NCBI GenBank assembly: GCA_016198685.1
Contig: JACQID010000006.1
Location: 160,001 to 224,000, forward strand
Length of the DNA: 64,000 nucleotides
Direction: 5' to 3'
DNA from: Candidatus Aenigmatarchaeota archaeon
Lineage (GTDB): Archaea; Aenigmatarchaeota; Aenigmatarchaeia; GW2011-AR5
Positions 15,841-38,333 of the stretch are shown piece after piece. The translations under genes and the position numbers were made by a program. Every line of letters begins with the position of its first letter. The stretch's first letter is position 1. The notes below the pieces were generated by a model. That model worked only from the letters and a program-made list of their open reading frames with translations, searched no databases and was not told where the DNA came from.

Positions 15841-16980
15841 ATGGAAAAGAACTATTTTACTTCCGAATCGGTAACCGAAGGCCACCCGGACAAGTTGTGT
15901 GACCAGGTATCCGACGCAATACTTGACGAAGCATTGCGACAGGATCCTGAGAGCAGGGTGGCCATAGAAACGGGCGCCAAGAACGGCGGTATAACGGTTT
16001 TCGGTGAAATGACTACGCGTGGTTACATAGACGTTTCTCGTGTAGCACGAGAAGTAATACGCAAAATCGGATATACCAAATCCGAATATGGCATAGAATG
16101 GGAAACCTGCTCAGTATGGACCCAGATAACTGAGCAGTCTCCAAACATTGCCCAGGGTGTTGACCAGAAGGAACAAGGCGCCGGGGATCAGGGAATGATG
16201 TTTGGCTATGCATGCCGCGAGACAGATGAATTGATGCCTTTGCCGATAACGTTAGCGCATAAGTTAACCATGCGCCTTGCCGAAGCAAGGAAGAAGGGCG
16301 AGATATCATACTTAAGGCCTGACGGGAAGTCGCAGGTAACAATAGAATACGTTGACGGGCTTCCGAAAAGAGCCGATGCAATAGTAATTTCAACGCAGCA
16401 CGATGATGGAGTGCCGTATGAAAATATAAAGGCAGACATACTGGAGAAGGTCATAAAACCCGTTTGCGGAAAATGGATGGACAACAGCACAAAAATATTT
16501 ATAAATCCTACAGGCAGTTTTGTTCGCGGCGGACCCTACGCTGATGCAGGCCTGACAGGCAGGAAAATAATAGTCGATACATACGGTGGCATGGGCCGAC
16601 ACGGAGGAGGCTGCTTCTCCGGAAAAGACCCTTCAAAAGTCGACAGGTCCGCGGCATATGCTGCCCGTTACGTGGCGAAGAATGTTGTCGCGGCAGGTCT
16701 TGCAGACAAGTGCGAAATCCAGATTGCTTATGCCATAGGAGTTGCCGAACCAGTTTCCGTCTTTGTTGACTGTTTCGGGACAGAAAAAATCAGCAAGGAA
16801 AAAATCTCGGAACTCGTTAGAAAGCATTTCCCCCTCAAACCGGCTCAAATAATATCTTCATTCGGCCTGAAAACCCCTATATACCTCAAAACCGCGGCTT
16901 ATGGTCATTTTGGAAGGCCGGAATTCCCGTGGGAAAAAACAGACAAGGCCGAAATTCTTAGGAAAGAGACAGGCATTTAG
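15841..16980 (+). CDS. metK: S-adenosylmethionine synthetase, bacterial/eukaryal type
   Basis: [32 protein letters not shown] and [16 protein letters not shown] motifs. Confidence 0.97.
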
Positions 16981-31099: not shown

Positions 31100-31718
31100 C
31101 TCATAACGTTCACGGTAAAACCTTTTAATACTTTAGTCTAAGTCTAATGTATGTTGATGCATAGAACTATGCATCAAGACGGGCATAAAGTTTGGCAACT
31201 TTTTGTGAATATTATTATTATAGCGCTAAACCTTATGCTCTTTATCTGTATTCAAGGCGTTGCTTCCGATTCAGGCAAACGCCTTTGCGTGAAGAAGCAC
31301 TTCAGGATGCGGAATATTATGAAGGCGCGATATTGATTATCATGCCGGATGAAGGCGCAAGCAGGCAATACTCTATTAGTGTGGTGCAGGAACTCTTCCT
31401 GCCAATTCAATTCCGGTTGATCCCGCCGGAGATTACTGCTATCAGGATTCGGCTAAGCCATGCGAGGCATTGTCGCAAGACAAGCCGCACTGCTCAGTAA
31501 CACGTAGTCAACCTGCCCTTGAGCGGGGGATAACCTTGGGAAACTGAGGATAATACCCCATAGGCGATAATGGCTGGAAGGCCTCTTCGTTCAAAGCTTC
31601 GGCACTCAAGGATGGGACTGCGGCGGATTAGCCTGTTGCGGGGGTAAGGTCCCTGCAAAGCTATAATCCGTACGGGTCGTGAGAGCGATAGCCCGGAGAT
31701 GGTTTCTGAGACATGAAA

Positions 31719-31749
<31 letters not shown>

Positions 31750-31873
31750 ACTTCGCAATGCATGAAAGTGTGACGAGGGGATCCTGAGTGAACTCGCAAT
31801 GCGGGTTCTTTTGCCGAATGTAAACAGTTCGGCGAATAAGTGGTGGGCAAGACGGTTGCCAGCCGCCGCGGTA

Positions 31874-31948
31874 ATTCGAAGAATCGTAACCATAATCAGC
31901 TGGTAAATCGGAAAACCGATTCTTGATTTCCGGTTCTTCGAACCGTAA
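31874..31948 (+). other. 16S BHB intron 1 (75 nt, after E. coli position about 532)
   Basis: Helix GCGG/CCGT, bulges TAA and AAA, stem TTCGAAGAA/TTCTTCGAA; splicing restores GCGGTAATAACCG. Confidence 0.92.
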
Positions 31949-31973
31949 ATAACCGCGCCACGAGTGGTAATCG

Positions 31974-32006
<33 letters not shown>

Positions 32007-32209
32007 TGTTAAGTCCCTGGTTAAATCCTACAGCAAACTGTAGGGCTTGCTGGGGATACTATCAGGCTTGGGATCGGGAGAGGTCGAGGGTACGGCATGG
32101 GTAGGGGCAAAATCCTTTAATCCATGTCGGACCACCTGTGGCGAAGGCGCTCGACTGGAACGAGTCCGACGGTGAGGGACGAAAGCTAGGGGAGCGATCG
32201 GGATTAGAT

Positions 32210-32264
32210 ATTGAAAAGTCTCAACTTTTCAATTTAGTGAGAAATGAGATTTTTTCAACTAAAT
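32210..32264 (+). other. 16S BHB intron 2 (55 nt, after E. coli position about 793)
   Basis: Helix TTAG/CTAA with bulges ATA and ATA; splicing restores GGATTAGATACCCCGGTAGTCC. Confidence 0.92.
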
Positions 32265-32840
32265 ACCCCGGTAGTCCTAGCTGTTAACGATGCCCGTTTG
32301 GTGTTACACGTTCTTAGTGAACGTGTAGTGCCGCAGCGAAGGCGTTAAACGGGCCGCCTGGGGACTACGGCCGCAAGGCTCAAACTTAAGGGAATTGGCG
32401 GGGGAGCACTACAAGGGGTGGATGCTACGGTTTAATTGGATTCAACGCCAGGAACCTCACCAGGGAAGACAGCAGAATGAAGGTCACTCTGAAGGGGTTA
32501 CCAGACAAGCTGAGAAGTGCTGCATGGCCGTCGTCAGTTCGTGCTGTGAAGTGTCCTGTTAAGTCAGGAAACGAACGAGACCCGTGCCGCTAGTTGCCAC
32601 TTTCCGCTACGGCGGGGAAGCACTCTAGCGGGACCGCTGGTGCTAAACCAGAGGAAGGAGCGGGCCACGGCAGGTCAGTATGGCCTTAATTCCCTTGGGC
32701 TACACGCGGCATACAATGCGCCGGACAATGGGATGCGACCCCGAAAGGGGAAGCCAATCTCTTAAACCGGCGCTTAGTTCGGATCGAGGGCTGCAACTTG
32801 CCCTCGTGAAGCCGGAATCCCTAGTAAGCGAAGGTCATCA

Positions 32841-33026
32841 TTCCCGCAAGTTCAAATGACCGAGGCATATGCCTCAAACTGCCTGGCGCGGCGTAGAAGC
32901 GCAACGAGAGATGACTGAGAATGGGCGGCTGACTACTTATGTCAGCAGACGGTTTGACAATGATCTCGTAAAAGCTTATTCGTCAGGTAGATACAGCAGC
33001 ACTATGATGGATTTGCGGAAGTGGAA
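32841..33026 (+). other. 16S BHB intron 3 (186 nt, h43 region, E. coli position about 1362)
   Basis: Helix TCAT/GTGG with bulges CAT and AAT; splicing restores GGTCATCATCTTTCGCTGAATACG. Confidence 0.88.
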
Positions 33027-33034
33027 TCTTTCGC

Positions 33035-33072
<38 letters not shown>

Positions 33073-33411
33073 GCCATCTGAGTGGAGTCTTGGTGAAGCC
33101 CATGACGAATGGGTCGAACCATGGTTCTGCAAGGAGGGCTAAGTCGTAACAAGGTAGCCGTACGGGAACGTGCGGCTGGATCACCTCCTATATATCTTTT
33201 GTGTTGCATTATGCCGCACTGATAGACTGCCAATTGCTTGCGCCTTCATTCGGATTTTTTATTGTATTAATTTCTCTACGCAAAGCGCTGTTCTCGGTAT
33301 AAGAAAAATACGTAGAATTGCGGTATATTATTTCGATTACACTGCATACTTATTGCAAAACTGAAATCATAAAATGACTAACAAATATGTTAACTGCCCG
33401 CGTATAGCTTA

Positions 33412-38066: not shown

Positions 38067-38333
38067 ATCCGTATTGCGGTATCTAGTCTACATTAACCAC
38101 AAAGAAAAGAAAGCACTTAGCTGTCTTTATTAGGACAAGATATAGGCACGGCATTATTTGAGAATGCAAATTCTTGGATAATGCCAAAAACTTCTGGACT
38201 AACCAAGTGGCAGATGGCTGTGAAGGAACACTGTCCCAGAGCGAGTCCTCGAAAGGCTTACGTCTTTCGCAGGGCAATGAGCGCAATCGGTAGCTTCCGA
38301 GCCAATGTAAAAAATCTGCAGTGCGGAGAACAG
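38067..38333 (+). other. 23S BHB intron 2 (267 nt, H89 loop, after E. coli position about 2477)
   Basis: Perfect BHB: helix GTTC/GAAC, bulges TCA and AGA, 12-bp intron stem; splicing restores GAGAGTTCTCATCGACC. Confidence 0.92.

Follow-up and report, generated by a model that had tools for sequence, protein, structure and literature searches.

A 16S rRNA intron of a Candidatus Aenigmatarchaeota archaeon with conserved box C/D-like modules and candidate guides to its own host rRNA

An intron in helix 43 of the 16S rRNA

The window, by which we mean the whole stretch of 64,000 nucleotides that was analyzed, comes from a 0.93-Mb genome (8 contigs, 94% complete) and carries a 16S rRNA gene at 31410-33189 (Rfam RF01959). 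When this gene is aligned to the Rfam covariance model, the loop of helix 43 holds an insert of 188 nt where the model has 2 nt. It had been predicted from the sequence that a BHB intron of 186 nt lies here at 32841-33026, and these coordinates agree with both the sequence and the BHB cut positions. Helix 43 itself (32827-34 with 33028-35) is the exon helix of the BHB; exon bases 32835-38 pair with intron bases 33021-24 to give the central helix of 4 bp, and the inner helix is P1, of 11 bp. Two bulges of 3 nt are therefore separated by a 4-bp helix and flanked by helices on both sides, which is the canonical 3-4-3 arrangement. The 5' bulge comprises 32839-41 and is cut after 32840, while the 3' bulge comprises 33025-27 and is cut after 33026. 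As cleavage falls after the second bulge base, the intron spans exactly 32841-33026.

Splicing is seen in RNA. A joint that skips 186 nt was present in 9, 3 and 1 RNA contigs from three groundwater metatranscriptome studies, some of which may derive from close relatives, and the coverage of the intron interior in the RNA contigs was zero. The best DNA run gave no joints of this kind and retained the insert with no mismatch. Besides, intronless relatives from other families of the same class show the spliced helix-43 loop uninterrupted and as predicted, and the genome encodes both the splicing endonuclease EndA and the ligase RtcB. The canonical BHB, the exact RNA joint and the intronless relatives all point to the predicted borders: the insert is a real 16S intron that is spliced out.

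By scanning genomes and metagenomes we collected 35 distinct introns, 59 to 252 nt in length, at the same 16S site in Ca. Aenigmatarchaeota, and every 16S of the family that covers the region has an intron there. In the other families of the class (L100-L119), helix 43 is either intronless or interrupted at the same position by plain hairpin introns of 34-93 nt, which have neither boxes nor guides. Judged from this comparison, the helix-43 site is an intron hot spot, with guide-like content limited to one family. The introns L008 (from genome G066) and L016 (from G017) belong to different genera and are nearly identical in their 5' parts, and the two layouts of the intron described below occur together in one genus; introns may have moved between lineages, or sequences may have been binned wrongly.

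Other inserts occur in the 16S genes of the family. In the window, the Rfam alignment places a second insert of 78 nt at about 31874-31951, within the 530-loop sequence, and we saw no C/D-like boxes in it by inspection. L016 and L027 (G017) and L002 (G029) have other 16S introns with long ORFs that are LAGLIDADG-like by motif only; the family may thus have ORF-bearing rRNA introns at other 16S sites.

Conserved helices, boxes and antisense elements

The features of the intron and its proposed targets are collected in Table 1.

Table 1. Coordinates in the window of the intron borders, RNA elements and proposed 16S targets
Feature	Positions	Strand	Basis and remarks
5' BHB half	32835..32841	+	sequence, fold, RNA joint 32839/40 to 33026/27
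3' BHB half	33021..33027	+	central-helix strand 33021-24; sequence, fold, RNA joint, intronless relatives
P1, 5' strand	32844..32854	+	pairs with 33008-33018; covariation in homologues
Outer box C-like strand	32855..32860	+	3-nt bulge 32855-57, then GA 32858-59; geometry from sequence
Lineage-specific hairpin (palindrome with GAGG and ATG)	32862..32875	+	fold, homologue comparison
P2, 5' strand	32879..32888	+	pairs with 32981-32990; fold and L070 G.U to G:C changes
K-stem, 5' strand	32904..32909	+	pairs with 32964-32969, closes inner kink-turn; covariation
Inner box C'-like strand	32910..32917	+	bulge 32910-12, GA 32913-14; ATGA(T/C) conserved
Alpha element GGGCGG	32923..32928	+	complementary to 16S 33062-33067 (E. 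coli 1399-1404)
Hx hairpin	32929..32945	+	32929-33 pairs with 32941-45, between alpha and beta; covaries
Beta guide GGTTTGAC (= GGUUUGAC)	32951..32958	+	complementary to 16S 33068-33075 (E. coli 1405-1412)
Inner box D'-like ATGA	32960..32963	+	GA 32962-63; NTGA conserved one base after beta
D guide GCAGCACT (= GCAGCACU)	32996..33003	+	complementary to 16S 32516-32523 (E. coli 1047-1054)
Outer box D-like ATGA	33004..33007	+	GA 33006-07, then P1 3' strand 33008-18; ATGAT invariant
Proposed alpha and beta target	33062..33075	+	3' exon; start of helix 44, decoding site
Proposed D-guide target	32516..32523	+	5' exon; helix 34, 5' strand

The RNA had been suggested to be more than a simple hairpin relic, and three covarying helices together with invariant UGA boxes, kept across the homologues, bear this out. 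P1 is shared by the BHB, as its inner helix, and by an outer kink-turn, as its canonical stem, and 9 to 10 of its pairs are changed on both sides in alignments of 11 and 13 homologues; in the K-stem all 6 to 7 pairs are. Taking P1, the K-stem and Hx together, 17 to 19 pairs show changes on both sides and 87-92% of the cells are paired, against 30-56% with the partners slid, and none of 500 shuffles matched the observed covariation. The K-stem is formed by ACGAGA and TCTCGT, which the original prediction had named as a potential pseudoknot: the pairing is upheld, but it is a nested helix that closes an inner kink-turn, and not a pseudoknot. The palindrome hairpin was seen only in the window's intron and in L070, a near-identical metagenomic copy.

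The four invariant UGA boxes fall into an outer and an inner kink-turn arrangement, both built of a stem, a 3-nt bulge and tandem GA opposite GA. The outer one adjoins P1 (32855-59 with 33004-07) and has the geometry of a terminal box D/C kink-turn with invariant UGA cores, its box C-like ATGA being invariant in alignments A1 and A2; its boxes read AUGAC and AUGA, as compared with RUGAUGA and CUGA, and in many or most homologues the bulge has 4 nt and not 3. The inner one adjoins the K-stem (32910-14 with 32960-63) and resembles an internal C'/D' motif, with a covarying stem, the 3-nt bulge GAU and GA 32913-14 opposite GA 32962-63. The boxes are thus degenerate, with ATGAC or ATGAT for box C and ATGA where CTGA is the normal box D. 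Regarding the spacers, those of the outer module depart from the 12-nt rule, since they run to tens of nucleotides with P2 and Hx inside, while in the inner module the alpha and beta strands have 14 nt each, slightly above the archaeal spacer of 12 nt. Rfam searches with the intron and three homologues gave no sense-strand family at either gathering or permissive thresholds. A pairing of the C' box region with beta, proposed by RNAalifold, was discarded because compensatory changes are missing from it and because introns of the other layout cannot form it.

This other layout is a circular permutation of the inner module. In 15 introns the module follows the canonical order of guide, D', hairpin and C', while in 17, the window's among them, the kink-turn stem has its open end on the side of the outer module, and the cap is on helix Hx. 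In the permuted 'type B' introns it is Hx that is open and continues into the outer part. The outer module is all that the three minimal introns (59-94 nt) retain.

Three unpaired elements of the intron are complementary to the 16S. The alpha element is invariant as GGGCGG, or reads GGGCGA, in 32 introns, and the D guide is found in 33 of the 35, with none of the three minimal introns lacking it. Alpha and beta are antisense to neighbouring stretches of the 16S that adjoin each other, 36-49 nt downstream of the splice site. Both 8-nt guides stand 5' of a D-type box. Counted upstream from the D' box, the fifth base lies in beta and pairs with A33071 (A1408); counted likewise from box D, it lies in the D guide and pairs with C32520 (C1051). 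Under the fifth-base rule, methylation is predicted at the equivalents of C1051 and A1408. The former corresponds to Gm1271 in yeast 18S. In S. acidocaldarius and N. equitans, A1408 has itself been predicted to be targeted by a C/D RNA (PMC4644070).

One could argue that short complementarities to rRNA are to be expected by chance. Indeed, the single intron gave 36 antisense matches of at least 7 nt to the 16S and 23S where 35 were expected, so matches of 7-9 nt in a single sequence are no more frequent than chance gives; in the 23S, positions 37181-88 fit the D guide as well, and 36509-17 fit most of beta. Hence, the case rests on the invariance of the elements, on the adjacency of alpha and beta, and on covariation. 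Position 2 of beta is A in exactly 4 of 32 introns, and these are the ones with U, not C, at the 16S 1411 equivalent; they come from two genera and include both layouts. There is one exception to the match, a C.A mismatch at the third position of beta in L008. The target of the D guide is invariant in the homologues and therefore carries no covariation signal.

Two other candidates were set aside. One was an additional guide-and-box unit made up of GGGCGG and the CTGA behind it; just 9 of 32 introns have an NTGA at that place. The other was a further copy of the GCAGCAC..TGA pattern in the genome, GCAGCACGATGATGG at 16385-16399 of the window; it falls within a 379-aa ORF (15841-16980), and we put its likeness to the D-guide motif down to chance.

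The 58-codon frame of the circle

The intron had also been predicted to encode a protein once circularised. A script confirmed the frame on the circle, which contains a single stop and reads 58 codons from the ATG at 32869-71, across the junction of 33026 with 32841, to the TGA at 32857-59; one minus-strand frame of the circle also has a single stop. Between the GAGG (32862-65) and the ATG downstream of it there are 3 nt and not the 4 first reported, and both are within a 14-nt palindrome (32862-75), as described. The earlier caveat that such a short ORF can arise by chance was justified: among 5000 dinucleotide-preserving shuffles, an ATG ORF of at least 58 aa appeared in 10.6% on the same strand and in 31% on either strand.

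The comparison with the homologues does not sustain the protein. In the 35 distinct introns, the lengths are not constrained by codons (only 10 are multiples of 3), the longest ATG ORF on the circle has as few as 4 or as many as 76 aa, and the introns have neither a frame nor a peptide in common. The frame is missing from 33 other homologous introns and is intact in the near-identical L070, the nearest relative, whose 5 substitutions comprise 3 non-synonymous and 2 synonymous changes; two of the five turn G.U into G:C in helix P2. A Pfam search with the 58-aa ORF gave zero matches, and with neither a Pfam domain nor a frame conserved in the homologues it does not qualify as a homing endonuclease.

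What is shared at the peptide level can be read as RNA. The stop TGA is the UGA of the outer box C-like strand, and the stretch SSTMM corresponds to the D guide plus box D, with 'MM' being the outer box D-like element itself. 'SSTMM' and 'LWN.SK' recur among the introns as translated conserved RNA motifs, while the remaining three box UGAs are out of frame in the window's intron. From these coincidences, the 58-aa frame looks accidental, a by-product of RNA motifs. What is conserved in the intron is RNA and not protein. The appealing idea that an RNA circle of an archaeon is translated here falls for want of support.

A candidate guide RNA and its alternatives

We propose that the intron works as follows. 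EndA would excise the 186 nt and RtcB would, by inference, circularise them. The two predicted kink-turns, the outer C/D-like pair beside the BHB stem and the inner C'/D'-like pair closed by a stem of its own, would bind L7Ae and recruit Nop5-fibrillarin. The single-stranded guides directly 5' of the D-type boxes would then pair with helix 34 and with the start of helix 44, and GGGCGG with the adjoining 1399-1404 as a third element. Acting on its own pre-16S, or in trans once excised, the RNP would 2'-O-methylate the equivalents of C1051 and A1408 and/or hold these strands during assembly of the head and the decoding site. That the intron is an atypical, intron-hosted box C/D guide or chaperone RNA acting on its own 16S seems to us a reasonably probable reading of the conserved elements, with the degenerate boxes, the short guides (8 bp), the spacers far beyond ~12 nt and the lack of an Rfam match as the points against it.

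The protein partners are at hand. L7Ae, Nop5 and fibrillarin are all encoded in the genome, and fibrillarin scores above the Pfam cut-off in 38 of 44 genomes of the family. A strict scan of the 0.93-Mb genome for canonical C/D sRNAs gave only one weak match (G000 C3:20677-20725), and free-standing C/D genes appear to be rare in it.

The RNP could also be a chaperone or checkpoint in cis and nothing else, pairing with the strands of helices 34 and 44 and delaying their folding until splicing, with no methyl transfer. The contiguous targets of alpha and beta, so close behind the splice site, would suit the capture of a strand, an active C/D enzyme of archaea would not typically have such spacers or such a layout, and a chaperone role has been proposed for archaeal C/D sRNAs (PMC4644070). 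Yet both guides sit in the exact register of methylation guides, directly 5' of D-type boxes, and the predicted sites match sites known or predicted elsewhere. The two roles can coexist, and we regard a chaperone role alone as rather unlikely.

Archaeal rRNA introns are usually seen as selfish elements, with or without homing-endonuclease genes. This one could be selfish or neutral as well, with a structure that serves splicing only and motifs held in common by descent; the plain hairpins of 34-93 nt, or no intron at all, in other families of the class indicate that the site tolerates content-free introns. Such a history sits poorly with unpaired motifs that stay invariant though the flanking helices have turned over completely, with an inner module that survives circular permutation and with the covariation of beta and the 16S, and we consider it improbable.

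Very improbable, in our view, is a guide of the pocket type for base modification (acetylation, like snR4, snR45 and U13, or H/ACA), in which two arms expose a nucleotide to another enzyme. Alpha and beta could form a two-armed pocket between the kink-turn stem and Hx, and the genome encodes Cbf5. However, full pairing of alpha and beta with their contiguous targets leaves zero unpaired target bases, no ACA box is conserved after Hx, and no acetyltransferase domain of the Nat10/TmcA type was found in the 94%-complete genome. The likeness to yeast snR4 and snR45 and vertebrate U13 lies in the C/D class, the two antisense arms and a site in helix 34 or near the 3' end of the small-subunit rRNA (snR4 targets helix 34 in yeast; PMC5464676), but those RNAs guide acetylation by Kre33/NAT10 and are not borne by introns in rRNA. 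An acetylation guide might also have been sought in a TTGGCG-type element that follows box C in many homologues and could pair with 16S 1062-1068, framing CCG; we retained this as a minor possibility only, because the window's copy is paired in P2 and not free, and because of the missing Nat10-type domain.

That the excised circle yields a 58-aa protein, with translation starting at the ATG at 32869 and running over the ligation junction, we regard as hardly credible, even with a frame that is present, preceded by GAGG and intact in L070, and with RtcB encoded, as the ATG and GAGG are buried in a GC-rich hairpin, several residues and the stop are RNA boxes, and chance, the other homologues, the L070 changes and Pfam all speak against it.

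Returning to the guide or chaperone RNA, the closest parallel is the intron of tRNA-Trp, to our knowledge the only established archaeal precedent for an intron RNA that acts on its host transcript. In Haloferax and Pyrococcus (sR50), the pre-tRNA-Trp intron contains a C/D sRNA; EndA cuts this intron out, and it can form a circle (PMC7994747). Both are BHB introns with a C/D guide, or here a putative C/D-like one, aimed at their own host transcript; in our case 16S rRNA takes the place of the tRNA as host, the boxes are degenerate, helices are inserted into long spacers, and the intron family adds a third antisense element and two circularly permuted layouts. With the canonical double-guide C/D sRNAs of archaea, the intron shares two kink-turns, guides directly 5' of D and D', encoded protein partners and targets in functional rRNA, A1408 among those predicted elsewhere. 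It differs from them in that the outer module lacks the 12-nt spacing, the elements are nested as C, C', D', D in place of the order C, D', C', D, and the RNA has no free-standing gene. What it has in common with the ORF-bearing introns of the I-DmoI type (LAGLIDADG) is being a BHB intron in rRNA, but those carry conserved homing-endonuclease genes of ~160-200 aa, whereas the 58-aa frame is unconserved and matches no family. Our literature search found no paper with C/D sRNAs in archaeal rRNA introns.

The window provides a second case. Its 23S intron (38067-38333, 267 nt) contains a canonical double-guide box C/D sRNA, with a core at about 38216-38303 and the order C, 13-nt spacer, D', hairpin, C', 14-nt spacer, D and terminal stem. 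Its D guide can pair with 23S 38023-30, a stretch that precedes the intron by 37 nt. The same C/D module is present in homologous 23S introns of three relatives (L092, L080 and L089), and the 60-aa ORF on the circle of the 23S intron is thus probably accidental too. Other relatives have a different conserved module at the same 23S site.

Taken together, the 16S and 23S cases suggest that intron-borne C/D guides aimed at the host rRNA recur in this lineage. We tentatively extend this, as a possibility that falls somewhat short of even, to the idea that Ca. Aenigmatarchaeota keep their C/D guides in rRNA introns, each modifying or folding its own pre-rRNA, with modules permuted perhaps via circles. 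The 16S intron would then address helix 34 and the decoding site, and the 23S intron the peptidyl-transferase region.

If this is true, intron-housed guides would be an archaeal counterpart of the eukaryotic intronic snoRNAs, with splicing coupled to ribosome assembly. Confirmation of the guide reading of the 16S intron would explain why a genome of 0.9 Mb with almost no recognisable free-standing C/D genes has fibrillarin and Nop5, and would provide a natural case of guide modules outliving circular permutation. The maturation of the small subunit would be tied to splicing, through an intron whose content is conserved as RNA and which looks made for work on the rRNA that hosts it, in helix 34 and at the decoding site.
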